A DNA stretch of 64,000 nucleotides from Sphingobacteriaceae bacterium (GTDB lineage Bacteria > Bacteroidota > Bacteroidia > UBA7662): the NCBI GenBank assembly GCA_030682795.1, contig JAUXNJ010000019.1:94627-158626 (forward strand), read 5' to 3'. A program made the position numbers and the translations under genes. Positions 45,751 to 58,335 of this stretch are shown here, in pieces. The notes under the pieces are model-generated. The model was not told where the DNA came from, searched no databases, and worked only from the letters and a program-made list of their open reading frames with translations. Each line of letters starts with the position of its first letter. Within the stretch, counting starts at the first letter, position 1.

Positions 45751-46152
45751 ATGAAAAAAGCCCTCCTACTGCAACTCTCCCTCGCCCTGGTGCTGTTGAG
45801 CAGCTGCGCTAAAAACATCCATGTTAACTACCAAAGCGACTCGGCAAATACAGGCAAGGTGGTGCTAAAACCGGCTGAACCCACCAATCGCACCTATGTA
45901 ACCTTTAACGACAGCTTGCTTGTGAACAAAAAGTACGTGAAGTCGGTAACCATCCACAACGTGCCAAGCGGTGAACACCACGTGCATTATACGTCGAACA
46001 ACTATGCGTACAAAGAAAAAATAGACGGTAAGATGACCGTTAATGTGGACAACAACCGCGTGATTACCAAGCTGATTGAAGTGCCTCCTTACAGTGCGGG
46101 TTATTGGATTGGACTGCTCATTAGCTTGCCTATTTTGGTGTTTGTGCTTTAG
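45751..46152 (+). CDS. Lipoprotein with C-terminal TM anchor, unknown function
   Basis: Lipobox LSSCA; AT-richer codon usage. Confidence 0.35.
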   Translation: MKKALLLQLSLALVLLSSCAKNIHVNYQSDSANTGKVVLKPAEPTNRTYVTFNDSLLVNKKYVKSVTIHNVPSGEHHVHYTSNNYAYKEKIDGKMTVNVDNNRVITKLIEVPPYSAGYWIGLLISLPILVFVL

Positions 46153-46304
46153 GTAAAAGCTGAGACAGCTTTCCGCTTTGTTACCTAGGCAAGCCCTTAG
46201 CTGCGCAAACTTGCCCCTAAATGTCAGATCTGTGGCTCGCATCAGCGAGTTACCGCAAGCACTTATACCGCAATAGCACTTTTCATTCCATTTATCAGAA
46301 TACC

Positions 46305-46934
46305 CTAATTTGTTGGCGGTGGCGGCGGGGGTTCAAAAGAAGCCTGAAAATCCGCCATCTCCTTCGGATACAAAATGCAAAGGAGGTCCTGGTATTTTTC
46401 GATTGCCTCTAACCTATGCCCTAAACCTTTGGTTCTGAGAAGCACTTTACCGGAATGGGCAGGACTCGTCAATAAGAATAAACTACTATGTATGGCTTCC
46501 TGGTTCGAGCTGTCAATGGCTGCAAACATGCTTTCAAGTGGGTAGCCCAAGGCCTCGGCAGGATAATATACCCGCGGAAAACACCATCTTTCTTCCTCTC
46601 CAATGAGGTTGACCATTTTTTCAAGAAACTCAATGAAAAGGCTATCGTTAGATTTGGTGAGCTGGAGCTGGTCGAAGCCCTGGCCTTTGCATACCGACAA
46701 ATTCACAACCACATTTAAAGTGTCACCCGCCGCCATGTATTTCGAAAACTCGGTATAATGCTGATGAAGATTAAAAGGCTCCTTTTGTTTTGCGCCTTCT
46801 TCTATACAGCCATACAGCCATACAGTAGCCACCAAGCTGCCTAAAAAGCCTTTTTTTAAATTCACAAACAGCTCGGTACAGCGCATCGTCGATTTCAGAT
46901 ATTCTAATATACGTGCTCCTTTTGGTTCAACCAA
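46305..46934 (-). CDS. Hypothetical protein (poly-Pro C-terminus)
   Basis: ORF only; no recognisable motif. Confidence 0.25.
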   Translation of the reverse strand: MVEPKGARILEYLKSTMRCTELFVNLKKGFLGSLVATVWLYGCIEEGAKQKEPFNLHQHYTEFSKYMAAGDTLNVVVNLSVCKGQGFDQLQLTKSNDSLFIEFLEKMVNLIGEEERWCFPRVYYPAEALGYPLESMFAAIDSSNQEAIHSSLFLLTSPAHSGKVLLRTKGLGHRLEAIEKYQDLLCILYPKEMADFQASFEPPPPPPTN

Positions 46935-46976
46935 TTGCTAGGGGCCCGTTTTTTAAACAACAGCCTGTAGCCATGT

Positions 46977-47366
46977 TCAAGGACCAACCTTTTCTAGCCA
47001 GTAATTCAAAGTCAATCCCAAAGCTCCTAGAAAAAACAGGGATGGTAAGAGCCAGCGAAAAATCTTCCGAAACGCCCTAAGGGCATCCAGCTCCTCTTGG
47101 CCCAAGCGCGAGCCTTGTAAAATGGGATCAAATTTCGAAAGGGGCAAAAAGCCGTACCACAAATCTACCAAGTTGACCCAGGGTAAGGTGCGGCTTTCGA
47201 AAGGCTTTGCATTGCCCCAGCGCCTGAGGTGCTTGGCCAAGCGGCGCAGCTCGCTGATGGTGCGTAAGTAAAAATTAAAGAGTGTCACAGTGATTGCTAA
47301 ACCAATGGCAAGGATAGGGGGACCATAGGTTTCGATGTGGGGCCATATTTGGTGCAGCTTTTGCAT
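46977..47366 (-). CDS. Hypothetical membrane protein
   Basis: Three hydrophobic segments; ORF only. Confidence 0.25.
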   Translation of the reverse strand: MQKLHQIWPHIETYGPPILAIGLAITVTLFNFYLRTISELRRLAKHLRRWGNAKPFESRTLPWVNLVDLWYGFLPLSKFDPILQGSRLGQEELDALRAFRKIFRWLLPSLFFLGALGLTLNYWLEKVGP

Positions 47367-47589
47367 GGATGGATTGAAGATAGTGATTTACTGGTTGTAC
47401 TATTTCCATTCAAAATGTATTTCTGAAACGTCGCTAAACTTGGAGATGGCTTCAAATCAGTCTGATATTTTGCCACTTTGGCATCAGACATCTTTCCTTC
47501 CCAATAGATTGTGTTCAACTTTGACTTATAGGGGACAGGTTACAGGTGTATGGGTGCCACCGTTAGGAGCTGTCAAAGGTTTCGTTCCC

Positions 47590-49179
47590 TTATGGATAAG
47601 CTATTAATTTCAAGCTAAATGGCGGCCAATCTTCAAATTCATTTCTACCTTCGAGAACAAGCTGACCTCCTCTAGGGGTAATCCACTTGCTTCTTAATCG
47701 CCCTTTTCCTGCAGGCTCAATATGATGTACAGGCCCAAAATGAGTATTAAGTGCCTCCATAAGTTGCTCTTGCACAACGGCCATGTACTGGGTAATGGGC
47801 TTTCTATCTGCGAAAATATGCTGCAATCCTGTTCTGAGGTATGGTTGCGTTTCTACAAATTCTAAACGACATCCCAGCCACACGCTATCAGAAGCTCGAA
47901 ACACATGTTCTGTCTTAATGGTAAGTATGGAATCGATAACAGCCCGGTGCATTTGTGTGAATTGCTGCACGGGCGGGTTTTGAATGGGTAAATAATACCC
48001 AACCCCTGTGCCTTGTCTGCTTTTTTGCATATTAGTACTGCCCCTAAACGCCTCAAGTTCATTCACACGTTTAAAATCAGCTATTTGACCAGAAAGAAGC
48101 TCGAAATAGCCCTGCCAGTTTGGTGTATGCTGATAAAGAAGCGTGTCGTAAAGCAATGTCCATTTTTGAAGGTGGAGCAATTCGCCTTTTATTTGCAGCA
48201 CCGTATAATGAACATTGTCTGAATGTCCGTATTCAAGCAAGCGCGAACTATCGTTGGGGTTGAGTCCTCGATATGCATTGTGCCAACGGCTATAAATGCG
48301 TTTAGGACCAAGATCAAGCAGAGGAATCCACTCATTTCCGGAATACTTTGCCACCAAAAGCCGTGTGCTATCATTTATCACATGTAAAAGCTGCCCATTG
48401 GCTACCCAACTCCGATGCAAGCCTAGCCTACTGGTATCAAAAGAATAGTACTCTCTTTCTGTGGTATCAGCCCAAATAGTAGTCTCTCCTTGCGGTTCAA
48501 CAGGAGGAAAAGCAGCAGGGCGGCGCCGTTTTTGGTAGCGATAGGCAGGAGGACAAGGCAAAAGATCCCGTGGATCAGCTATAAGACTAAGTGCACTACT
48601 GTAATCGAGGTAATATTTCCCTTGAAACCGGGTCATTCGGTCACTGCTGTAAGGCGTAATGTATTGTTTTTTCGTTTTTTTATCGATGAACCACGTGCAA
48701 GATCCCCATTCTCCGTAATCTCTATAGTATACGCGATACCGTTCATCTTCATACACTTGATTACTCCGTTTTCGGTATTCTAGCCAGCCGTCTTTCTTTA
48801 AATCGAAGCGATAGCTCCGGTTGTGCATGTAAGGAAGCAAATGTAATTGATCATTTTGTACGTATAAATCGAGGTAAATAGTGTTTTTGCGTACCACATC
48901 GGGCAGCGGTAGTTCACGCAAAAGCTCGCCTGAACGATTAAAAACAAATAGCCGAAACCAATCAGTATTGTGTGGTTGTGGGTCCCGTTCTGTCATCGTC
49001 ACATACCAATGCCCGTCGAAATCGGCCAAATGGGAGATATAAAAATAGCACCCAGGTGTTTGAACCCCGCGTACATCAAGCGTCAGGCTGTCATGTTGTA
49101 ACTCTAATTGGGGATGAGGGCGATCTTGCGCTTGGGTAATGGCCCCACAACACCAGAACATAAACACCAAGCCGAGCAT
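47590..49179 (-). CDS. Secreted 529-aa protein of unknown function
   Basis: The second in-frame ATG (49179) gives a clean signal peptide MLGLVFMFWCCGAITQAQ; the ORF track starts 17 codons upstream (49230). Trp/Tyr-rich, no known domain recognised. Confidence 0.4.
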   Translation of the reverse strand: MLGLVFMFWCCGAITQAQDRPHPQLELQHDSLTLDVRGVQTPGCYFYISHLADFDGHWYVTMTERDPQPHNTDWFRLFVFNRSGELLRELPLPDVVRKNTIYLDLYVQNDQLHLLPYMHNRSYRFDLKKDGWLEYRKRSNQVYEDERYRVYYRDYGEWGSCTWFIDKKTKKQYITPYSSDRMTRFQGKYYLDYSSALSLIADPRDLLPCPPAYRYQKRRRPAAFPPVEPQGETTIWADTTEREYYSFDTSRLGLHRSWVANGQLLHVINDSTRLLVAKYSGNEWIPLLDLGPKRIYSRWHNAYRGLNPNDSSRLLEYGHSDNVHYTVLQIKGELLHLQKWTLLYDTLLYQHTPNWQGYFELLSGQIADFKRVNELEAFRGSTNMQKSRQGTGVGYYLPIQNPPVQQFTQMHRAVIDSILTIKTEHVFRASDSVWLGCRLEFVETQPYLRTGLQHIFADRKPITQYMAVVQEQLMEALNTHFGPVHHIEPAGKGRLRSKWITPRGGQLVLEGRNEFEDWPPFSLKLIAYP

Positions 49180-49481
49180 ATGTTGTTTAATGATCCGCTT
49201 TTGGTAATGGTATGTTTGGTTCAAATACATTTAGCTTTTTAGGTAAAGAAGTGCGGAATCAGCCTTCGAAATCTTGCAATAAATTCACAAACCAGAGAAA
49301 AACATTGGATGATGTCCACATGGCCTTGGAATGTACTTTGTATGAACTAAGTTAAGCAATGAAGCTGTAACAAACCACAGCTTAAGGCCTTTTGCCGAAT
49401 TATTGCATTTCGGTGACACCAGGTCGTTCGCCTGGAACTGCTTTGTAAAGACAGCAAATAACCTTATTTGGAGAAGTTTGA

Positions 49482-49622
49482 CTACTTAAAATGTCCCGGC
49501 ATCCGCTGCAATTCCATCAGCTTCGCCCTCAGCTTTTCCATTTCGTTGCTTTTGTTGGTTTTGAAGCGCAGGATAGGGAAATCGTACTTCTCCAGGATGC
49601 GGTCTTTCATTTGATCGCGCTC
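49482..49622 (-). pseudogene. Truncated remnant of a DUF559 (Vsr-like endonuclease domain) gene
   Basis: Only the C-terminal about 45 codons are in frame (…RDQMKDRILEKYDFPILRFKTNKSNEMEKLRAKLMELQ), resembling the DUF559 C-terminus (…G..VLRF.N.EV…); upstream is frameshifted or absent. Confidence 0.3.
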
Positions 49623-49650
49623 GGCTTATTGGCTGCCGGTTTGGTGGAAT

Positions 49651-50445
49651 TCATTTTATAAATACATGTTCATAATGGTATTCTAAAAACAGCTTCGACG
49701 GGATAAACTTATCTGGAATTTGAATTTTTATATTGTCAAAAGCTTTGAAATAAGCCTGGACTGCCATTTCGCTTTCAAAATCCATGAAAGCCTTTGATAA
49801 GCAAACTTTAAAGTCACTAGTTATGGTCATGTAGCCTTTATCAAACGCCCGGTCGTGCAAGGCATTCAGACAAAGTCCATTTCGTGGATTTAACCTTTCC
49901 TTTTCATTTTTACTCCAAGGAACAATATGGCTCGCAACTAATAAGGCCGGGATTGACAAACCTGTGATACAGCATTTAGAATAGTAATTATTTAGAACCA
50001 TGGTTCTAAAAACAGATTGATTAACCCTGGCTTGAACCTGGCGCATTGCTGACTTACCTTCCAAATCTTTAATATCTAGCAGTATATCGGCATATTTTTT
50101 GGCAATGGTGGTTTTTTGTCTTTCTGCCAAAATTTCCTCGCTCTTAAAAACCAACTCTTCTTGGTTGCTATAAAACTCATCCCAAATGGGCTGTACTTGA
50201 TTCATCCCACCTTTCAGTCCACCAATACCCCTCGCTTGGAGTCCTGGGTCGCAACTGGCAAAATTTCCCAAACGCATACCAATTGAACTAGGTGTCCTGT
50301 CCAAGAGATTAGCCAAATCAATTATCTCAGGGTTATGCTTGTGCATTTTCCCAAAGGGTAACTTCAAATAAAGATTAAAGGCTAAAATTAGCTCTTCACG
50401 AGTCCAGAGGTTTTTGGGCATGGAGGTTTCAACTTGCTTGAACAA
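49651..50445 (-). CDS. HNH endonuclease (HNH_2-type), putative type IV/modification-dependent restriction nuclease
   Basis: C-terminal HNH_2 motif (ALLVASHIVPWSKN...NGLCLNALHDRAFDKGYMTI) with a roughly 130-aa N-terminal domain of unknown fold. Confidence 0.5.
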   Translation of the reverse strand: MFKQVETSMPKNLWTREELILAFNLYLKLPFGKMHKHNPEIIDLANLLDRTPSSIGMRLGNFASCDPGLQARGIGGLKGGMNQVQPIWDEFYSNQEELVFKSEEILAERQKTTIAKKYADILLDIKDLEGKSAMRQVQARVNQSVFRTMVLNNYYSKCCITGLSIPALLVASHIVPWSKNEKERLNPRNGLCLNALHDRAFDKGYMTITSDFKVCLSKAFMDFESEMAVQAYFKAFDNIKIQIPDKFIPSKLFLEYHYEHVFIK

Positions 50446-50914
50446 AAATTAAGTAATTAAAATTAGTTGATTTATTCGGGCATTTGATATGTAAAAACAT
50501 GATTTGTTACGTTTTTATTAAGACGGGCATGTGATCGCATAAGCTGCTTATTAATTGCATTAAAAATTCTATATTTTGAGCTCGGCTGTCATTAACAATG
50601 GTTTCTGTTTTCGTGTGAGCCGCAGTTCAGTATTGCCTTTTGCGTTGGCCAATTCTTCTTTAAACTCCGTGAGATAGGTTAGAGTTGGATTAAGTGTAAT
50701 TCGCTCATACTATTCTCTAATCTGCGGTATGGAGCTTAGCAACTATTCACTTCATTCGCTTATTGGTGAAAGGCACGAGAATCAGCACATAATGCCTCTC
50801 TCTTGGCATTGTACGATTCTAGAAAAGCCTCTATTACTGCCTTTCAGGCTTTGAAAACTGGCTTTAAATCTAGCATTTGATACATTTTCACTTTTTACTG
50901 TTGAAAACTTGTCT

Positions 50915-50931
50915 TGGACATTTTTTGTCCA
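50915..50931 (+). promoter_or_regulatory. Candidate C-box operator palindrome upstream of the RM controller gene
   Basis: Perfect inverted repeat TGGACA-ttttt-TGTCCA about 50 bp upstream of the HTH gene. A second IR AACTAA-N9-TTAGTT lies at about 50957-50977. Confidence 0.35.
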
Positions 50932-50979
50932 TAAACAACAAATCCTTAGTTTTGAAACTAATAGTCCGTTTTAGTTACG

Positions 50980-51297
50980 ATGAAAAATATCAAAAGTTTT
51001 GGCGAGCATTTGAGGTCATTAAGAGAAAATGCGGGGTTAACTCTCAAAACAGTTGCAGAACAAATAGGCGTAGACACGTCTCTACTTGCAAAAATTGAAC
51101 GAAATGAAAGACAACCTTCAAAAAGCCTCATCAAAGACGCAGCATTATTTTTCAAAGTCGATGAAAAAGAATTGACAAAACTGTATTTAAGTGACGTTAT
51201 AGCCTATAAAATTTTAGATGAAGAGGGCGACATAAGTATTCTAGAAGTAGCTGAGACGAAAGTGAAATATCTAACTGCCGTTAAAAATGAAAAATGA
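50980..51297 (+). CDS. XRE-family HTH protein, probable RM controller (C) protein
   Basis: HTH (LTLKTVAEQIGVDTSLLAKIERNER). Directly upstream of, and overlapping, the C5-methyltransferase gene. Confidence 0.55.
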   Translation: MKNIKSFGEHLRSLRENAGLTLKTVAEQIGVDTSLLAKIERNERQPSKSLIKDAALFFKVDEKELTKLYLSDVIAYKILDEEGDISILEVAETKVKYLTAVKNEK

Positions 51298-52600
51298 AAT
51301 CACAGTCATCGAATTATTCGCAGGGGTTGGCGGGTTTCGACTTGGTCTAGAAGGTTGGCAAGGAAAATCCGCTTCTTCCTTTTATCAAAAAGCATTGGAA
51401 TCCTCATACAAAGTGATTTGGAGCAATCAATGGGAACCTTCTACAAAAGCTCAACACGCATCATTGGTTTATGAAAGTAAATTTGGCAAGCAGGATCATT
51501 CTAATGAAGACATAGCTCAGGTGGATGTATCTAGCATACCAGATCATGATTTACTTGTTGGAGGTTTTCCTTGTCAAGACTATTCTGTTGCAACTACTTT
51601 AAAAAACTCAAAAGGTTTAATAGGTAAAAAAGGTGTTCTTTGGTGGAGTATTCATAAAATATTGAGCGATAAAAAGAATAAACCAAAGTACTTATTTCTT
51701 GAAAATGTTGACCGTCTCCTAATCTCTCCATCAGGCCAGCGCGGAAGGGACTTTGCAATAATTCTCAAGAGTTTAAACGACCTTGGCTATGCTGTCGAGT
51801 GGAGAGTAATTAATGCTGCAGATTACGGGATGCCTCAAAGAAGACGAAGGGTTTTTATTTTGGCCTATCTCAATTCCACCGACATTTACCAACAGTTACA
51901 GGAAACCTCGCCTGTAGATTGGATTTTGGAAGAAGGAACCCTCGCCGATGCTTTACCCGTGACATCAAAGATGATGTTATTTCCAACAGAATTTAAATTG
52001 GTTGGAGATGTTGTACATATATCTGATCATTTTAATAAAGATAAAAATGTGGGGGTTTTTGAAAACACTGGAGTTATGCTTAACGGAGTAGTGACTACCA
52101 TCAAAACAGTACCAAGCTATGGTGGTGAACAGACTTTGTTAGGTGATATTCTTCAAAATGGCGAAGTATCCTCCGAATTTTACATTGATAAAGAGGACTT
52201 AGACAAGTGGCATTACCTTAAAGGACCTAAAAAGGAACTTCGCAAAAACGCTGATGGCTTTGAATATCATTATAATGAAGGAGGGATGATTTTTCCTGAT
52301 TCGCTTGACAAACCGTCCAGAACCATAATAACAGGTGAAGGAGGTAAATCCCCTTCAAGATTCAAGCACGTCATACATACTTCAAAAGGATATAGGCGCT
52401 TGTCTCCAGTGGAATTAGAAAGATTGAACATGTTTCCTGATAATCATACCAAACTAGAAGGTGTAAGCGATGCAAAAAGAGCCTTTTTCATGGGTAACGC
52501 ATTAGTAGTTGGGGTAATTGAGAAAATTGGCATTTCTTTATGTCAAAAAATTTCCCAAAATGTTAGCTTACAATCCGGAAAACAAGAGGTCTGTAGTTGA
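51287..52600 (+). CDS. DNA (cytosine-5)-methyltransferase
   Basis: Motifs I (FAGVGGFRLG), IV (GGFPCQDYS), VI (ENV), VIII (QRRRRVF) and X (GNALVVGV). Confidence 0.9.
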   Translation: MKNEITVIELFAGVGGFRLGLEGWQGKSASSFYQKALESSYKVIWSNQWEPSTKAQHASLVYESKFGKQDHSNEDIAQVDVSSIPDHDLLVGGFPCQDYSVATTLKNSKGLIGKKGVLWWSIHKILSDKKNKPKYLFLENVDRLLISPSGQRGRDFAIILKSLNDLGYAVEWRVINAADYGMPQRRRRVFILAYLNSTDIYQQLQETSPVDWILEEGTLADALPVTSKMMLFPTEFKLVGDVVHISDHFNKDKNVGVFENTGVMLNGVVTTIKTVPSYGGEQTLLGDILQNGEVSSEFYIDKEDLDKWHYLKGPKKELRKNADGFEYHYNEGGMIFPDSLDKPSRTIITGEGGKSPSRFKHVIHTSKGYRRLSPVELERLNMFPDNHTKLEGVSDAKRAFFMGNALVVGVIEKIGISLCQKISQNVSLQSGKQEVCS

Positions 52601-53978
52601 TTACGCCAAACGCTTAATAAATAAGACACTACGGGAGGCCTGCGAATCAAATATACTAGAACACAATTTCAAGGGTAAAGGAAATTTTGGTCAAGTACTT
52701 GAGAAATTCTATTTCGGATATGAGCCAAATTCGAATTCTGAGCCAGATTTCAGACATATCGGATTAGAACTCAAATCTACTCCGCTAAAAACGCTGAAAA
52801 CTGGAGAAATAAGGTCGAAGGAACGTTTGGTCCTGAACATTATTAATTACAACTCTATAGTTAACCAAAACTTTGATGGTAGTGATTTTTGGAAAAAGAA
52901 CGCCCAGCTTCTTATAATTTTCTTTTTGCACGAACCTAATATCAAGATTCTAGACTATACGATAAAACTTGTTGATGAGTGGGGATTTTCAGAGACGGAT
53001 TTAAAGGTCATAAAAAAAGACTGGCAAATTATCAGGCAGAAAATACAAGAAGGTAAGGCTCATGAACTATCTGAAGGAGATACTTTGTACCTAGCTGCAT
53101 GCACGAAAGGTGCAAATGCCCAATCGCTACGACAACAACCTCATTCACCAATCCCCGCCAAACAACGCGCCTTCTCTTTGAAACAAGGTTATGTGAACCA
53201 CATTATTGCTACACTCGCAGGAGAGTCCTCCATAAGATATGGCAAGTTAATTCCATCCTTAAACGAATTTACCGAGGAATCCCTTGAAGAAATAATCCTA
53301 AAAAAATTCAAACCATACTATACCAAGAACGTGGAAGAAATTTCTACACTTACTGGAATCAAGCTAAATATGAGTGCGAAAAACTTCTATTCAAAGCTTA
53401 CGCATGCAATCTTAAATATAGACCTTAAAAAAGAAATTGAAGAGCTTGCAAAAGCAAATATTGAAGTCAAAACTATTCGAGTGGAAAAAAACGGCCAGAT
53501 AGAACAATCTGTTTCTTTTCCTGCATTTGAGTTTATTACTCTTTATAATGAACACTGGATTACCAGCGAATTAAAAGAGAAAATTGAAAAGAAATTTCTT
53601 TTTATTTTCTTCAAACATGATGGTTCCTGCTACAGATTAGAAAAAATCAAATTCTGGAACATGCCGTTGACCGACAGAAATGAGGTGCGAAAAATTTGGC
53701 TCAAAACCAAATATGTAGTCCAGAATGGTGACGTTTTCAATGAATATGACAGAGACAGCTTTGGAAATATACGATTGTCGATAAAAGGGCACAAAATTAA
53801 AAAGAATAATTTTCCTAAGATCAGCGATAGTCGCATTTGTCATGTCCGACCACATGGTAGGGATTCTACTGAAACATATCCGCTTCCAGTTCAAGACAAA
53901 AAATTAAACGAAATGGAATATACTAAACAATGCTTTTGGCTCAACAATACATATGTACGTGATGAGATTTATCTGTGA
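52560..53978 (+). CDS. Type II restriction endonuclease, Sau3AI/MutH-like
   Basis: N-terminal MutH-type catalytic motif EPDFRHIGLELKSTPL (D...E-x-K). The 473-aa length is close to the roughly 490-aa R.Sau3AI (N-terminal catalytic plus duplicated C-terminal domain). Overlaps the MTase 3' end. Confidence 0.55.
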   Translation: MLAYNPENKRSVVDYAKRLINKTLREACESNILEHNFKGKGNFGQVLEKFYFGYEPNSNSEPDFRHIGLELKSTPLKTLKTGEIRSKERLVLNIINYNSIVNQNFDGSDFWKKNAQLLIIFFLHEPNIKILDYTIKLVDEWGFSETDLKVIKKDWQIIRQKIQEGKAHELSEGDTLYLAACTKGANAQSLRQQPHSPIPAKQRAFSLKQGYVNHIIATLAGESSIRYGKLIPSLNEFTEESLEEIILKKFKPYYTKNVEEISTLTGIKLNMSAKNFYSKLTHAILNIDLKKEIEELAKANIEVKTIRVEKNGQIEQSVSFPAFEFITLYNEHWITSELKEKIEKKFLFIFFKHDGSCYRLEKIKFWNMPLTDRNEVRKIWLKTKYVVQNGDVFNEYDRDSFGNIRLSIKGHKIKKNNFPKISDSRICHVRPHGRDSTETYPLPVQDKKLNEMEYTKQCFWLNNTYVRDEIYL

Positions 53979-54192
53979 TATGAGAATTCCGTTTCAAATT
54001 GACCCCCTTCGTGTTGGATTAGTTTTGGGGGAGTTTACAACAATAGCATCTTGACTGTCGATCTTAGCCTTGCTACTAGCGTTTTGCATCTACCCGAAGA
54101 TGGCGATTTCGTCGCACTTCACTGTCAACCAAGCACAAAGCTTGATTTAACCTCTGAACCGCCACTTTTGGGCAGGTGGTGTTGGTGGCTGT

Positions 54193-55047
54193 TCATGTTA
54201 TATTATAATAAGATTTCCATCTAGTTCTTGAGCGTAAATTTACAGTCGATATGTAATCATTTAGTGGTCTAAGTCTGGGTTCTGGTCTTGGTATAATACC
54301 TGTTTTAAAAGTTAGACGCCCATCAATAATATTGTAGCAAGAAGCAAAAAAGTCTTTAGCTGGTTGTGGCCATGCAGCTCCATAACCATGTTCACATTCT
54401 AAAAACTTTCTAACACAAAATATAACTAAATCAGAAATTTGAATCATTGGGTTTTTAGTGGAATCTATAGGATAGCTAAACTCTACAACCCTTTTGACCC
54501 TATGTGTTGCAACTGTTAAAAATCGTCTATCATAAAGAATAGTTTCAATATCTGTATGATGATTTTCTTTTTTATCTAAAATCATTAATCCTCTAGCTGA
54601 ACTGCCAAGTTTTCTTTTAATATGGTCGTTGAATTGAGTTATTAAATAATCAAAGCCCAATAAATATGGGGATTTAGAATTGAATGCGGTAGCTACAGCG
54701 CAAGTATTAGCATGAATTAAAGGTTTCGAAAAAGCAATGATATGAACATTATGAGTATGATCTACAAGAATATTTAAAACATCAAATGCTAGTTGATTTC
54801 GTTTAACTCTCGCATGTCCAGCAAAATGCCCAGCGCCATTTGGAGATAAAAGTTCATGCGCGTGTAACTCAAAATTTAGCGGAACTGCTCCTGCAAAATA
54901 TCTGTCTATTATTGTTACAAACTTTTGTTGTGTTGGATTCCATTTTTCATCACTGACAGTTAATCCGCCCATTACAAAAATTGGCTGTTCAGTATTTAGT
55001 AAATCATCTCCAGTATCTCCAGTTTCATCAATATAAAGGAAGTGCAT
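54193..55047 (-). CDS. DUF3800-family protein
   Basis: Hallmark N-terminus LYIDETGDTGDD (DUF3800 'YIDESG'); 284 aa; AT-rich. Confidence 0.5.
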   Translation of the reverse strand: MHFLYIDETGDTGDDLLNTEQPIFVMGGLTVSDEKWNPTQQKFVTIIDRYFAGAVPLNFELHAHELLSPNGAGHFAGHARVKRNQLAFDVLNILVDHTHNVHIIAFSKPLIHANTCAVATAFNSKSPYLLGFDYLITQFNDHIKRKLGSSARGLMILDKKENHHTDIETILYDRRFLTVATHRVKRVVEFSYPIDSTKNPMIQISDLVIFCVRKFLECEHGYGAAWPQPAKDFFASCYNIIDGRLTFKTGIIPRPEPRLRPLNDYISTVNLRSRTRWKSYYNIT

Positions 55048-55289
55048 AGTTATATTTTATTCAGAGTTTCTCTTAAGTGGCTACTAACTGCATGCTTTAC
55101 GTAAGGAGAATAGCCAGTTAAAAGTAGCTTCATCGGTTATTTGCTTTTGCAATATAACTTATGAAAGCTGTTGTTGATGCGCATGGGCATAAAAACATTT
55201 CAGCAACCAGCAAATGGGCGGTGCGGACGTGGTTTTTGGCACGTTGGGTGTTTGAATGGGCTTGGCGGGGGCCGGCGCTTCGACGAGGC

Positions 55290-55736
55290 TCAGCGACCGG
55301 TATTTTCTTCCACCACCCGCTTGTAATTATCCATAATCGCCTGCCAGCCGGCGCGCTGCATGTCGATGGGATTTTCGGTTTCGGCATCGAAGGTTTGTGT
55401 AACGAGTACCTGCTCATCGGCGCCGGTTGCTGAGGGCATCGAAGCATCAAAGGTAATGCGCACGGTGCGGCCGTCGGCGAGGTGGTAGGCAATGAGGGCT
55501 TCGGGTTCCACAGCATCGTAAATGCCTTCAAAATCGAAGGCGAAGGAGCCGTCGCGGGCGGCCATGCGGTAGTTGAAGCTGCCGCCCACACGCAAATCGT
55601 TGGTGGCGGCAGGACAATGCCAGCTGGGGTCGGCAAAGTTCCACTGCATGATGTGCTCGGGCTGGGTCCAGTAGGCCCAGGCTTTAGCGAGGGGGGCTGC
55701 CATGGTTATTTGGAGGGTGACTTTTTCGAAGGACAT
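55290..55736 (-). CDS. SRPBCC/AHSA1-like (activator of Hsp90 ATPase homolog) domain protein
   Basis: 148 aa; N-terminal ITMAAPLAKAWAYWTQPEHIMQW typical of the AHSA1/SRPBCC family. Confidence 0.55.
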   Translation of the reverse strand: MSFEKVTLQITMAAPLAKAWAYWTQPEHIMQWNFADPSWHCPAATNDLRVGGSFNYRMAARDGSFAFDFEGIYDAVEPEALIAYHLADGRTVRITFDASMPSATGADEQVLVTQTFDAETENPIDMQRAGWQAIMDNYKRVVEENTGR

Positions 55737-55841
55737 GGGCTTTCTTTTAAGCCAAATTACGGGTTTTTGGTGAACATTGTGCCCTTGTAGGCTTTGGCAC
55801 TGGCCCAGCTTGATAGTTCAGCGCCGCTGTTTGTGTTTAAA

Positions 55842-56210
55842 TTACAACAGCTTCGGAACAAAAACCAAGAGCCCAATGCTGGCGGCGGTGATGGCACTCA
55901 GTAGAACGCCAGCTGCGGCCAAATCTTTGATGGTTTTAATTTTGCTGTTGGTTTCGGTCGTCATAAAGTCGGCCAGGTTTTCGATGGCGGAATTAAAGAT
56001 TTCGGCCATAAACACCAGTCCAATCGCAAAAATAACGGCCATCCACTCAAAAGCATTCAGCTCAAAAAACAAAGAAGCAGCTATAACAAGCACCGTTGCG
56101 GCCAGGTGCACGCGTGCATTGTGCTCTTCTTTGAACAGAATTTTCAGTCCGTTAAAAGCGTAGCCGAAGCTTTGGAGGCGTTGGCTGATGGAAAAGGCTG
56201 CTTTTTTCAT
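55842..56210 (-). CDS. dgkA: Diacylglycerol kinase / undecaprenol kinase (DgkA family)
   Basis: Three TM helices with conserved E...N...E...D pattern (EEHNARVH; AEIFNSAIENLAD). Confidence 0.65.
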   Translation of the reverse strand: MKKAAFSISQRLQSFGYAFNGLKILFKEEHNARVHLAATVLVIAASLFFELNAFEWMAVIFAIGLVFMAEIFNSAIENLADFMTTETNSKIKTIKDLAAAGVLLSAITAASIGLLVFVPKLL

Positions 56211-56378
56211 GTGGGAATTTAGAGGTTCTTTCGATTCGTCCGTCAAGAATAACCGCAAACATTCAACTTTTATGAAGCATTAAATCCGTTGATTTTTCTA
56301 AATGCTAGGCTGCCTATTCCGGAAGGCTCATGACAACCATCGTTTGATATGCCGTGCGCTCTAGCCCATTTGCTTCTA

Positions 56379-56936
56379 TCAAAGCTTCTTAATCAACTTA
56401 AGGGAACGCAAGTCGTATATATGAATCTCGCTTTTGTCTGTCCTATCGTATTTAAAATTGCCGTTTGAATCAAAATAGCCCGTCACCACCAAGGTGGCGG
56501 TAGATGAATTAACCGTCCACCTCTTTGTGAAAAAGCTGCTGTCCGTCAGTTGTGTTGTTTCTGTGCCATCAGTGGAAATTATAATGATTTGCTTTGGGTC
56601 ATTCCAGTCCACGCCCTTTTTACCATCTAAATCCACCGTATGCGCGCCTACAATCATGAGATTAATGCCGAAGCTGTCAATTTTCACTTGCTCAATTTCT
56701 TCGATGTAGCCGCCACGTGGGAAATCTATCCGTTTTGATTGTCCTGTGGATGTATTGATAAATAATAGATGCTTGCTTTGGGTATCGTACATTTTGCCCC
56801 AGTTCTCAATAGATGCTATGACATAATCGGTGCCTTTAATTTCTTTGAGTTTGTTGAAGAGCACATAATTGTTTTTGTCTTGCCCAAACGTAGCGGAAGC
56901 AAGGGTTGTGAACAAAATGACCAATAGCTGTTTCAT
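56379..56936 (-). CDS. Secreted/lipoprotein of unknown function
   Basis: Signal peptide MKQLLVILFTTLASATFG; AT-rich. Confidence 0.3.
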   Translation of the reverse strand: MKQLLVILFTTLASATFGQDKNNYVLFNKLKEIKGTDYVIASIENWGKMYDTQSKHLLFINTSTGQSKRIDFPRGGYIEEIEQVKIDSFGINLMIVGAHTVDLDGKKGVDWNDPKQIIIISTDGTETTQLTDSSFFTKRWTVNSSTATLVVTGYFDSNGNFKYDRTDKSEIHIYDLRSLKLIKKL

Positions 56937-57198
56937 AGATTCTTTGGTTTTTGTTGGATGTTTGATGCTTGAAATTACTTCAAGAGCCATTTAAGCTCCG
57001 CATTGTTAAACCCAACAGGTGCAGCAAAATTGTGCAGCAAAGTAAATTCTAACCAAAATGTGCTGCTATCTATAGCATTGATAGGCCCGTCACAAAAAAG
57101 GAACCGCAGCTCTTTTTTTATTGGGAGGGTTATGGTTTTGATCATAAAGACGCGATGAATCGCAGCTCTGCACGGTAGATGCGCGATGAATCGCGCGT

Positions 57199-58335
57199 CT
57201 ACTCGTGCTGCATCAAGGTCTCATACCCGCCGTCGGACAAAAACTGCTGCTTTTGCATGAGGCGGAGGTCACTGGCCATCATGTCGGCAACGAGCTCGGC
57301 CAGACTGTGGCGCGGCTCCCAGCCCAGCTTGGTGCGGGCTTTGGTGGCGTCGCCAATGAGCAGCTCTACTTCGGTGGGTCGGAAATAACGCGGGTCAACT
57401 GCTACGAGGGCATCGCCTACCTGCAGTTTGCAGCTGCGAATGCCCAAACTGGCCAAACGCGCCGTATCTATACTGCTCACCAGGCCGGTTTCAGCCAAAT
57501 CACTGCCTTCGAAACGAATACCGATGCCGAGCTCGGCGAAGGCCATCTTCACAAAATCGCGCACATAGGTGGTTACCCCGGTGGCAATCACAAAATCCTC
57601 GGGCTCGTTTTGCTGCAGCATGAGGTACATGGCCTCTACATAATCTTTGGCATGGCCCCAGTCGCGCTGGGCATTGAGGTTGCCCACGTATAACTTGTCT
57701 TGCATGCCGAGCACAATTTTGGCAGCGGCACGGGTGATTTTGCGGGTTACAAAGGTTTCGCCGCGCAAAGGCGACTCGTGGTTAAACAAAATGCCGTTGC
57801 AAGCATACATGCCGTAAGCCTCGCGGTAGTTCACGGTAATCCAGTAGCCATACATCTTGGCCACGCCATAAGGCGAACGCGGATAAAAAGGCGTGGTTTC
57901 ACGTTGCGGCACTTCTTGCACCAAGCCGTACAACTCCGAAGTCGAAGCCTGGTAAATGCGGGTTTTTTGGGTCAGGCCGCAAATGCGCACGGCCTCCAAA
58001 ATACGCAAGGGCCCCAGGGCATCGGCATTGGCGGTGTACTCGGGCGTTTCAAAGCTCACCTGCACATGACTCATGGCCGCGAGGTTGTAAATTTCGTCGG
58101 GCTGCACCTCCTGGATGATGCGAATTAAATTGGTGCTGTCGGTGAGGTCGCCATAATGCAACTTGAGCCGCACCCCTTTGTCGTGCGGGTCCTGGTACAA
58201 ATGGTCGATGCGATCGGTATTAAAAAGCGATGCGCGGCGCTTGATGCCGTGCACCATATAGCCTTTGTTCAACAAAAACTCGGCGAGGTAAGCCCCGTCT
58301 TGTCCGGTAATGCCGGTGATTAATGCGGTTTTCAT
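57199..58335 (-). CDS. gmd: GDP-mannose 4,6-dehydratase
   Basis: N-terminal Rossmann [15 protein letters not shown], catalytic YxxxK region, full-length GMD. Confidence 0.9.

Follow-up and report, generated by a model that had tools for sequence, protein, structure and literature searches.

A Sau3AI-type restriction-modification operon with a candidate controller-protein operator in a Sphingobacteriaceae bacterium

Introduction

In the prototype Sau3AI restriction-modification (R-M) system of Staphylococcus aureus 3A, the endonuclease gene (R) precedes the methyltransferase gene (M), and no controller gene (C) is known to us in that system. Chernov et al. reportedly gave the primary description, in 2015, of Mhy3, a methyltransferase of Mycoplasma hyorhinis. 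Mhy3 and the DCM2/R.DCM2 system of M. hominis involve GATC m5C methyltransferases paired with Sau3AI homologues, and experimental evidence that Mhy3 is a GATC-specific m5C methylase is given in PMC4636357 (accession link in PMC10305163).

Controller proteins such as C.PvuII, C.AhdI, C.Esp1396I, C.BclI and C.Csp231I are small XRE-type helix-turn-helix (HTH) regulators that head R-M operons and share an inverted-repeat operator at their own promoter. To our knowledge, work on them has dealt almost exclusively with the sigma-70 promoters of Proteobacteria and Firmicutes. Canonical C-boxes have an AGTC-core double-box layout and belong to C-R operons whose M gene has a transcript of its own (PMC5282649, PMC2632904). 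Moreover, C proteins are described in PMC2632904 as using a pair of high-affinity and low-affinity sites, and many predicted C homologues in databases are said there not to be linked to R-M genes. Here, we describe a locus in which an HTH gene, a C5 methyltransferase gene and a Sau3AI-family endonuclease gene stand in the order C-M-R, and compare it with these systems.

Results

The DNA analysed, hereafter the window, is a 64,000-nt stretch from a Sphingobacteriaceae bacterium (GCA_030682795.1, contig JAUXNJ010000019.1, positions 94,627-158,626 of the forward strand), and all coordinates are positions within it. At 50915-53978, a 17-bp perfect palindrome is followed by the C, M and R genes, overlapping and on the same strand, and each sequence feature that a first-pass annotation had placed here was found at its position. 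All three open reading frames (ORFs) are intact, with catalytic motifs kept. The features are as follows:

49200-55100, no strand: low-GC island (composition profile: GC about 0.36, flanks 0.45-0.57)
49651-50445, minus strand: HNH_2 nuclease, island passenger (Pfam/PADLOC)
50915-50931, no strand: palindromic operator candidate TGGACATTTTTTGTCCA, core GGAC-N7-GTCC
50924-50954, plus strand: predicted Bacteroidetes-type promoter, with -33 TTTG at 50924-50927, a 19-nt spacer and -7 box TAGTTTTG at 50947-50954
50980-51297, plus strand: C gene, 105-aa XRE/HTH_3 regulator with a predicted two-helix C-terminal extension
51287-52600, plus strand: M gene, 437-aa C5 cytosine DNA methyltransferase (PF00145), predicted product GAT(m5C)
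52560-53978, plus strand: R gene, 472-aa Sau3AI-family type II restriction endonuclease
52584-53207, plus strand: N-terminal MutH-like catalytic domain of R, residues about 9-216
52746-52775, plus strand: catalytic motif of R, SEPDFRHIGLELKSTP, D63-X6-E70-X-K72
53274-53969, plus strand: C-terminal domain of R, homologous to the C-terminal (allosteric effector) domain of Sau3AI
54193-55047, minus strand: DUF3800, island passenger (Pfam/PADLOC)

C and M overlap by 11 nt, and M and R by 41 nt, with R in a different frame from M. The R gene starts at ATG 52560 and stops at 53978; the alternative in-frame TTG at 52518 was not adopted, since both the homologues and the identical protein held at NCBI (MDP2188337.1, 'Sau3AI family type II restriction endonuclease') agree with 52560. 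The overlap of the R start with the M end, proposed in the first-pass annotation, is real in the window and is the rule among relatives.

The operon sits on the low-GC island and appears to have been horizontally acquired. No noteworthy repeats, direct or inverted, flank the island at its boundaries, no tRNA was detected in 40000-64000, and no Rfam family matched in 46000-58000. The HNH_2 and DUF3800 neighbours were not linked to the operon across the 80 related loci described below.

R aligned end to end (residues 9-470, E 1.5e-73) with PDB 4pxg, the sequence of the Sau3AI crystal structure, and scored 501.5 bits against NCBIfam NF040973 (Sau3AI equivalog, cut-off 300; residues 9-470 of 472), the similarity to Sau3AI being moderate. 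Both proteins share a two-domain architecture and the catalytic motif. The N-terminal domain of R matched Pfam MutH (E 4.5e-36), the alignment with MutH 1azo spanning residues 5-216, and is of the same fold family, with the same catalytic motif, as the MutH mismatch-repair endonuclease; the MutH/Sau3AI signature and the kinship with Sau3AI that had been read from the translation were confirmed in this way. Furthermore, residues 229/239-470 matched the Sau3AI chains 7xm0 (E 1.1e-20) and 2reu (E 2.7e-19), two chains that themselves align to the C-terminal part of the complete Sau3AI. Judged by its sequence, R is a member of the Sau3AI family with both domains present and the catalytic motif intact. 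A role as a repair MutH was considered and rejected, because R scored well below the cut-offs of two MutH equivalog models (69.8 against 243 and 48.4 against 229.9 bits), carries a second domain and is encoded next to a methyltransferase.

The C5-methyltransferase assignment of M, also made at first pass, was upheld by PF00145 (E 8e-62), by TIGR00675 (226 bits, cut-off 101) and by an intact set of motifs I, IV (PCQ), VI (ENV), VIII and X: FAGVG (FxGxG) at 11, PCQ at 95, ENV at 139, QRRRR (QRRxR) at 184 and GNA at 403. A C5 cytosine methyltransferase partner is a further trait in common with the Sau3AI system, with GATC as the predicted target and m5C as the predicted protection. Specificity was compared with Mhy3 (AEX14156.1, Mycoplasma hyorhinis); M showed 46% identity to Mhy3 over 418 aa (E 1e-114, full length), and its specificity region alone (residues 196-372) showed 38.5% identity (E 6e-25). 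HhaI, HaeIII and other PDB methyltransferases aligned only at about residues 7-206, outside the specificity region. These alignments support Mhy3, a GATC-specific m5C enzyme by the experimental evidence cited above, as the probable closest characterised relative of M. In M. hyorhinis, as here, the M gene immediately precedes a co-oriented Sau3AI-family R gene; however, the record shows that R gene as two separate ORFs whereas R in the window is full-length, and the Mhy3 and DCM2 systems have no C gene and belong to another phylum with another promoter type.

The pairing of M and R was conserved across phyla. Of the best 30 M matches in plasmid records, about 23 came from records with a Sau3AI-family R gene as well, the two genes being adjacent in most, and the best full-length plasmid matches to M adjoined such genes. 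From this homology and from the depletion of GATC, the specificity of M and R is most likely GATC/m5C. GATC occurs 109 times in the 64-kb window against 182 expected (observed/expected 0.60), the most depleted of the sixteen 4-bp palindromes there. Taken from a single stretch of 64 kb, this depletion is weak evidence, and other GATC systems of the lineage might account for it.

The product of C matched Pfam HTH_19, HTH_31 and HTH_3, showed a weak similarity to C.AhdI (phmmer E 4.5e-4) and matched the PADLOC Control_protein model (E 1.7e-5). Generic HTH and CapH models fitted it better than Control_protein models did, and DdrO, SinR, CapH and one phage repressor scored equal to or better than C.AhdI or Control_protein. 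The AF2 model consists of a five-helix HTH with two further C-terminal helices, an addition that, together with the protein length of 105 aa, would set C apart from classical C proteins, and Foldseek gave weak matches to C.AhdI, C.BclI and C.Esp1396I alongside generic XRE proteins. Neither sequence nor fold sets C apart from generic XRE regulators, among them DdrO, SinR and CapH. It has the controller-protein trait of a small XRE-type HTH located within an R-M cluster and co-oriented with it.

The palindrome TGGACATTTTTTGTCCA is the sole exact match in the window. A perfect inverted repeat with 6-bp arms and a short spacer is not rare in itself: by a rough estimate, the chance of meeting one in 100 bp of upstream sequence is 0.1-0.3. 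The palindrome counts as significant because it is conserved in related loci, not because it is perfect. Among the close relatives that make up class A, GGAC-N7-GTCC precedes the -7 box by 31 nt in 12 of 13 loci; it occurs 12 times in 130 kb of class A loci, every time at most 80 nt upstream of the C gene. More broadly, 63 of the 67 regions upstream of C contain [TG]GAC-N7-G[TA]C[ACT], and its register with a TAnnTTTG box is fixed. Three C-protein classes can be told apart by the recognition helix (DTSLLAK, DQSLISK and DQAIVSK), and the operator type tracks the class. The palindrome is in our reading a real operator candidate for C, and its conservation supports the view that C and the palindrome would behave as controller protein and operator across more than 60 related loci.

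Bacteroides promoters follow the consensus TTTG-N17-23-TAnnTTTG. Both strands of the 64-kb window hold four full matches to it, one of which is the operon promoter, and the same scan found no full-consensus promoter inside the C-M-R operon. The -33 TTTG lies inside the palindrome, and the -7 box is invariant among relatives, in register with the operator. Judging from these elements, the transcription start of the operon can be placed provisionally near 50959-50961, with a short predicted leader and not the leaderless mRNA of classical C systems. A sigma-70 promoter and terminator scan of 50400-54300 gave many weak matches, none of them informative, and was replaced by the Bacteroidetes-consensus scan because sigma-70 is the wrong promoter type for the phylum.

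In most relatives, the distal site is perfect and the proximal one, GGAC-N7-GACC, imperfect, and in this they share the strong distal and weaker proximal sites of classical C systems. The proximal operator is present in 42 of 47 metagenomic and in 12 of 12 genomic relatives and absent in the window, where 50953-50968 holds a GTCC half-site only. A GAAA...GTCC pairing at that position was tried as a proximal operator and discarded for its wrong spacing (N6). The single-operator layout recurs in intact metagenomic loci in which M and R are present, such as L137 and L153. Since the window has no proximal operator, its regulation may be weaker or different.

A single scan of species-representative genomes yielded 80 related loci, about 75 of them from Bacteroidota, and the C-M-R order was kept in most. 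The HTH gene was present in 66 of the 80; the C/M overlap was again exactly 11 nt long in 62 of 65 loci, and an M/R overlap was seen in 53 of 67. The conserved unit is C-M-R, given that flanking genes vary between loci. ORFs inserted between M and R in some relatives had no Pfam matches. M alone had thousands of matches, those listed at the top sharing 78-82% identity and coming from Bacteroidota where the source was named. In the four Bacillota and Mycoplasma homologue loci inspected, the gene orders varied and no HTH gene was annotated beside the R-M pair. The expectation in the first-pass annotation that such a system is unusual in Bacteroidota is contradicted by this distribution, and GATC methylation and restriction have been documented in Prevotella and Flavobacterium (PMC5608340, PMC11837570).

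Discussion

We consider it highly probable that the locus is a horizontally acquired type II R-M operon of the Sau3AI kind, in which C, M and R form one unit and C autoregulates through GGAC-N7-GTCC. It is most likely an intact three-gene defence operon with a Sau3AI-like nuclease and GATC as its target. The three genes would be transcribed as one unit from the single Bacteroidetes-type promoter; M would methylate C5 of the cytosine in GATC, and R, with its N-terminal MutH-like catalytic domain and C-terminal MutH-like effector domain, would cut unmethylated GATC. C would bind the site overlapping the -33 element and so autoregulate C, M and R, with repression as the most likely mode, and the ORF overlaps may tie the translation of M and R to the upstream gene. 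What we infer from the locus is that C binds DNA, in which direction it regulates, and that translation is coupled; the gene order, overlaps and operator-promoter register are themselves conserved features.

The R-M enzymes are ordinary and had already been correctly annotated automatically under the NCBI Sau3AI-family name; the new points, and mildly so, are the regulator-binding site and the gene order. In contrast to the Sau3AI system, an HTH gene heads the operon here. The textbook C-box operator announced at first pass survived as a conserved operator candidate and not as a canonical C-box, given its GGAC-N7-GTCC core and the C-M-R order; the core differs from the PvuII-like motifs 1-6, to which the comparison was confined, PMC2632904 also describing palindromic motifs 7, 8 and 10. 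Unlike a classical C-R operon with a separate M, the locus is a single C-M-R operon with overlapping ORFs and one full-consensus promoter, and the operators overlap the Bacteroidetes -33 and -7 elements, which also departs from classical C systems.

The main question is how C acts. A switch of the PvuII, AhdI and Esp1396I kind, with the same R-M system, in which the distal site activates, the proximal site represses and R is delayed, would suit the two-site layout of most relatives, which matches the high- and low-affinity pair described in PMC2632904; we nonetheless regard it as rather unlikely for this operon. The distal site covers the -33 element and does not lie upstream of it, the window has no proximal site, activation by C seems unnecessary because the -33 and -7 elements fit the consensus as they stand, and activation would raise M and R together because M lies between C and R. 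How M would act before R in a new host is not accounted for by autorepression of a single C-M-R operon on its own. A broader proposal, possible although somewhat short of probable in our estimation, is that the Sau3AI-type systems of Bacteroidota represent a previously undescribed class of controller circuit, with a 102-108-aa XRE protein bearing a two-helix extension, xGAC-N7-GTCx sites exactly on -33 and on -7/start of its Bacteroidetes-type promoter, a single C-M-R operon, pure autorepression and M-before-R timing through gene order and translational coupling, the window being a natural single-operator variant. The lone operator could also mark a decaying relic that has lost its proximal site and is perhaps heading to inactivation, as the window is alone among 13 class A genomic loci in lacking it and its C protein is short of three N-terminal residues found in relatives; with three intact ORFs, catalytic motifs in place and the same layout in the intact metagenomic loci L137 and L153, we hold such decay to be improbable.

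Doubts about the identity of the parts carry less weight. Enzymes of the Sau3AI/Mhy3 family might have a target other than GATC, or M might fail to protect against R, as the similarity of R to Sau3AI is only moderate, M shares 46% identity with Mhy3, and few changes may suffice to alter the specificity of C5 methyltransferases, as PMC10305163 cautions. This is quite improbable, since R and M match GATC-specific relatives over their full length, the M specificity region included, the M-R pairing is kept across phyla, and GATC is the most depleted 4-mer palindrome. We know of no characterised enzyme of the MutH/Sau3AI family that recognises a sequence other than GATC. That the HTH gene merely lies beside the R-M genes and encodes an unrelated regulator, for instance an antitoxin or what is left of a phage repressor, would agree with the better fit of C to generic HTH and CapH models and with the many unlinked C homologues noted in PMC2632904. 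We find it very hard to credit against an HTH gene retained in 66 of 80 loci, an 11-nt overlap with M in 62 of 65, a candidate operator at the operon's only promoter and a C-M-R unit that stays constant while its flanks vary.

On the preferred reading, an autoregulated C-M-R operon, the system is a further member of a known R-M kind that departs from classical C-protein systems in operator sequence and in its single-operon C-M-R order. The regulation is its mildly interesting part, with a conserved operator family in fixed register with Bacteroidetes -33/-7 elements, and the operon offers a simple, testable case of R-M timing under different transcription machinery. In practical terms, a GATC/m5C restriction barrier would affect the genetic manipulation of Sphingobacteriaceae and Flavobacteriia, and passage through dam+ E. 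coli would not spare DNA from cleavage, as m6A has no effect on Sau3AI-type enzymes.

Results

The palindrome and three ORFs that the first-pass annotation had placed at 50915-53978 were found there, arranged as follows.

Features of the candidate restriction-modification operon (window positions)
50915-50931: perfect inverted repeat TGGACA-TTTTT-TGTCCA, exact copy found once in the 64-kb window
50980-51297 (+): C, XRE-type HTH regulator ORF, 105 aa
51287-52600 (+): M, C5 cytosine methyltransferase ORF, 437 aa
52560-53978 (+): R, Sau3AI-family endonuclease ORF, 472 aa, ATG at 52560

C and M overlap by 11 nt, and M and R by 41 nt in different frames, confirming the proposed R start within the end of M; there is also an in-frame TTG at 52518, but homologues begin at the ATG position and the NCBI protein (MDP2188337.1) is exactly the 472-aa form. 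In the composition profile, roughly 49.2-55.1 kb, holding all three genes, shows ~36% GC against 45-57% in the flanks, a contrast suggesting horizontal acquisition of the C-M-R block. A protein identical to M is on record from a Sphingobacteriaceae MAG and a Por secretion tail domain occurs in genes nearby, both of which fit a Bacteroidota host.

R scored 501.5 bits against the NCBIfam Sau3AI equivalog model NF040973 (residues 9-470; cut-off 300), and the Sau3AI crystal-structure sequence 4pxg aligned with it end to end (E 1.5e-73). MutH itself matched R residues 5-216, the catalytic D63-X6-E70-X-K72 is intact within SEPDFRHIGLELKSTP, and residues 229/239-470 matched chains 7xm0 (E 1e-20) and 2reu (E 3e-19), which align with the C-terminal part of full-length Sau3AI. 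By these alignments R is a Sau3AI family member, in line with the predicted Sau3AI/MutH-like enzyme and with the label that NCBI already gives MDP2188337.1; a repair MutH was ruled out, the scores being far under both MutH cut-offs.

The assignment of M as a C5-MTase was likewise borne out (PF00145, E 8e-62; TIGR00675, 226 bits), with motifs I, IV, VI, VIII, and X all intact. MTases of solved structure, HhaI and HaeIII among them, align with M over residues ~7-206 only, outside the specificity region. The best full-length tblastn matches of M in plasmid records (42-49% identity, at least 94% coverage) mostly share their record with a Sau3AI-family R gene, M and R being adjacent in most such records. 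One match, from Mesomycoplasma hyorhinis, adjoins a Sau3AI-family gene and is exactly AEX14156.1, which is Mhy3 (PMC10305163), a cloned and characterised GATC-specific 5mC methyltransferase according to PMC4636357. Window M is 46% identical to Mhy3 across 418 residues (E 1e-114), and when restricted to the stretch between motifs VIII and IX, identity is 38.5% (E 6e-25); on these comparisons M is a member of the GATC-m5C family. Moreover, under a maximal-order Markov model of the 64-kb window, GATC was depleted more strongly than any other of the sixteen 4-bp palindromes (109 observed, 182 expected, O/E 0.60). Taken together, the M-R pairing, the similarity to Mhy3, including its specificity region, and the depletion of GATC make GAT(m5C) protection by M and GATC cleavage by R likely.

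CTAG (O/E 0.66) and CCGG (O/E 0.73) were the next most depleted, a hint that this genome is subject to other restriction pressures or to general biases in its sequence. At the M. hyorhinis NCTC10121 locus (L082:4185-5614), the annotation splits the Sau3AI-family gene beside Mhy3 into two overlapping ORFs (MutH/Sau3AI family, then Sau3AI family), and the locus may thus combine a disrupted nuclease with an active GATC m5C methylase.

C is an XRE/HTH_3 protein whose matches include C.AhdI (E 4.5e-4), C.BclI, and C.Esp1396I, but also DdrO, SinR, CapH, and phage repressors. Neither sequence nor predicted fold distinguishes it from other XRE regulators, and its role must consequently be judged from context. 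C homologues numbered 846 cluster representatives at E <=1e-5, and a scan of species-representative genomes with R gave 80 loci, most of which keep the C-M-R order. An overlap of exactly 11 nt between C and M recurs in 62 of 65 loci, 53 of 67 have overlapping M and R genes, and in 63 of 67 a [TG]GAC-N7-G[TA]C[ACT] inverted repeat lies 5' of C at a fixed distance to a TAnnTTTG box. Three C-protein classes differ in their recognition helix, and operator type follows class.

Classes of C protein and their operators
Class A (64-72% identity to window C): helix DTSLLAK, operator GGAC...GTCC
Class B1: helix DQSLISK, operator GGAC...GTCT
Class B2: helix DQAIVSK, operator TGAC...GTCA

Across the 13 class A loci, which total 130 kb, there are 12 copies of the exact core GGAC-N7-GTCC, always <=80 nt upstream of C. 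A lone palindrome with 6-bp arms is not significant by itself; it is conservation upstream of C in relatives that makes the window copy significant.

Bacteroidetes promoters, as known from Bacteroides, follow the consensus TTTG-N17-23-TAnnTTTG. Only four occurrences were found on both strands of the window, one of them at 50924-50954, and a window scan found no full-consensus promoter inside the operon. The -33 TTTG of the 50924-50954 promoter sits within the right half of the palindrome, and its -7 box, TAGTTTTG, lies 26 nt ahead of the C start codon. In the window, and in every class A relative that has it except L053, the start of the distal operator lies 31 nt upstream of the -7 box. Class A relatives carry a second, imperfect operator, GGAC-N7-GACC, which begins directly where the -7 box ends and lies over the expected transcription start. 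The window retains the distal operator, the -33 element, and the -7 box, and has unrelated sequence and a longer leader 3' of the latter, leaving one full operator only; its C protein is also without the first three residues of its relatives. Among the 13 class A genomic loci, L040 and L027 included, the proximal operator is replaced only in the window (50955-50979). A metagenome scan added 47 class A sites, 42 with two operators and five without the proximal one, among them L137 and L153, which have M and R intact; the single-operator layout is thus a recurrent minority form.

Discussion

Judging from this geometry, one promoter would drive C, M, and R, and C, once accumulated, would repress its own operon, which is the simplest reading given that both promoter elements already fit the consensus and that the -33 element lies under the operator. 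Under such autorepression, entry into a new cell would bring a burst of expression followed by a low steady level. A classical switch, in which C first activates and later represses, could apply especially to two-operator relatives; however, it accords less well with the geometry and with C-M-R order, and we regard it as unlikely. The position of M ahead of R, with R starting 41 nt inside M, would favour M over R via gene order and coupled translation. Sau3AI is activated via a second GATC bound by its C-terminal domain. The domain names quoted in PMC10305163 and the titles of 2reu and 7xm0 accord with this, and similar activation may hold for R, where it would slow self-cleavage further.

The first-pass annotation had called the palindrome a textbook-style controller operator. 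Its place at a C promoter is conserved, but it is not the AGTC-core C-box described for studied C-protein systems in PMC5282649 and PMC2632904, a comparison that leaves out palindromic classes 7, 8, and 10 of the latter. In systems studied to date C shares an operon with R, not with M (PMC5282649), whereas here M lies inside the C operon and the operators are placed on the -33/-7 elements. The literature searched contained no description of a conserved operator family with a C-M-R operon fitted to a Bacteroidetes promoter; only this combination is modestly new, the kind of system itself being known. In contrast to the window operon, no HTH gene is annotated at any of the four inspected homologue loci from Bacillota and Mycoplasma, whose gene orders vary, and the Sulfurovum, SUP05, and Fibrobacter loci of the genome scan have M and R without C; the C gene thus appears to have been added in the Bacteroidota lineage.

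The system had also been considered unusual in Bacteroidota, which is contradicted by its distribution. Bacteroidota genomes account for about 75 of the 80 related loci, with sources such as Flavobacterium, Tenacibaculum, Chryseobacterium, Fulvivirga, Marinilabiliaceae, and Saprospiraceae, and M has thousands of matches, the top ones among those listed being 78-82% identical and the source-named ones all Bacteroidota. Methylation and restriction specific for GATC have been documented for Prevotella as well as Flavobacterium (PMC5608340, PMC11837570), and PMC5608340 also refers to a GATC MTase of Prevotella bryantii that modifies cytosine. Since the module is common in this phylum, rarity fails as a reason for interest.

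A few close R homologues occur in MAGs assigned outside Bacteroidota, namely L008 (Rhizobium sp. Q54), L026 (Sulfurovum), L042 (SUP05), L067 (Fibrobacter), and L030 (Melioribacter). The L008 contig carries a full Flavobacterium-type C-M-R with a B2 operator, and its assignment may be a binning error.

The low-GC island holds two further genes, neither linked to C-M-R among relatives. An HNH_2 nuclease (49651-50445, -, 264 aa), divergent from the operon, scored 311 bits against the PADLOC HNH model PDLC04132 and only 54 bits (cut-off 180) against the NCBIfam phosphorothioate-DNA restriction model; a role as a stand-alone restriction or type IV-like nuclease is possible. At the opposite edge, a DUF3800 protein (54193-55047, -, 284 aa) had no NCBIfam match and a marginal PADLOC match only.

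About ten related loci have the order C-M-X-R, with a conserved ORF X of ~390 aa between M and R (e.g., L002:3824-4996, L055:3800-4969, L056:3773-4969, and L027:3657-4829). ORF X had no Pfam match, and it might encode a second nuclease, given an E-x-K-like 'VIEIKKG' stretch in its C-terminal part. Another M/R insert, a 156-aa ORF on the opposite strand, also with no Pfam match, is present at L023:3099-3569(-) and L032:4086-4556(-), accompanied in the latter by a second small XRE-like HTH gene (L032:4556-4843(-)).
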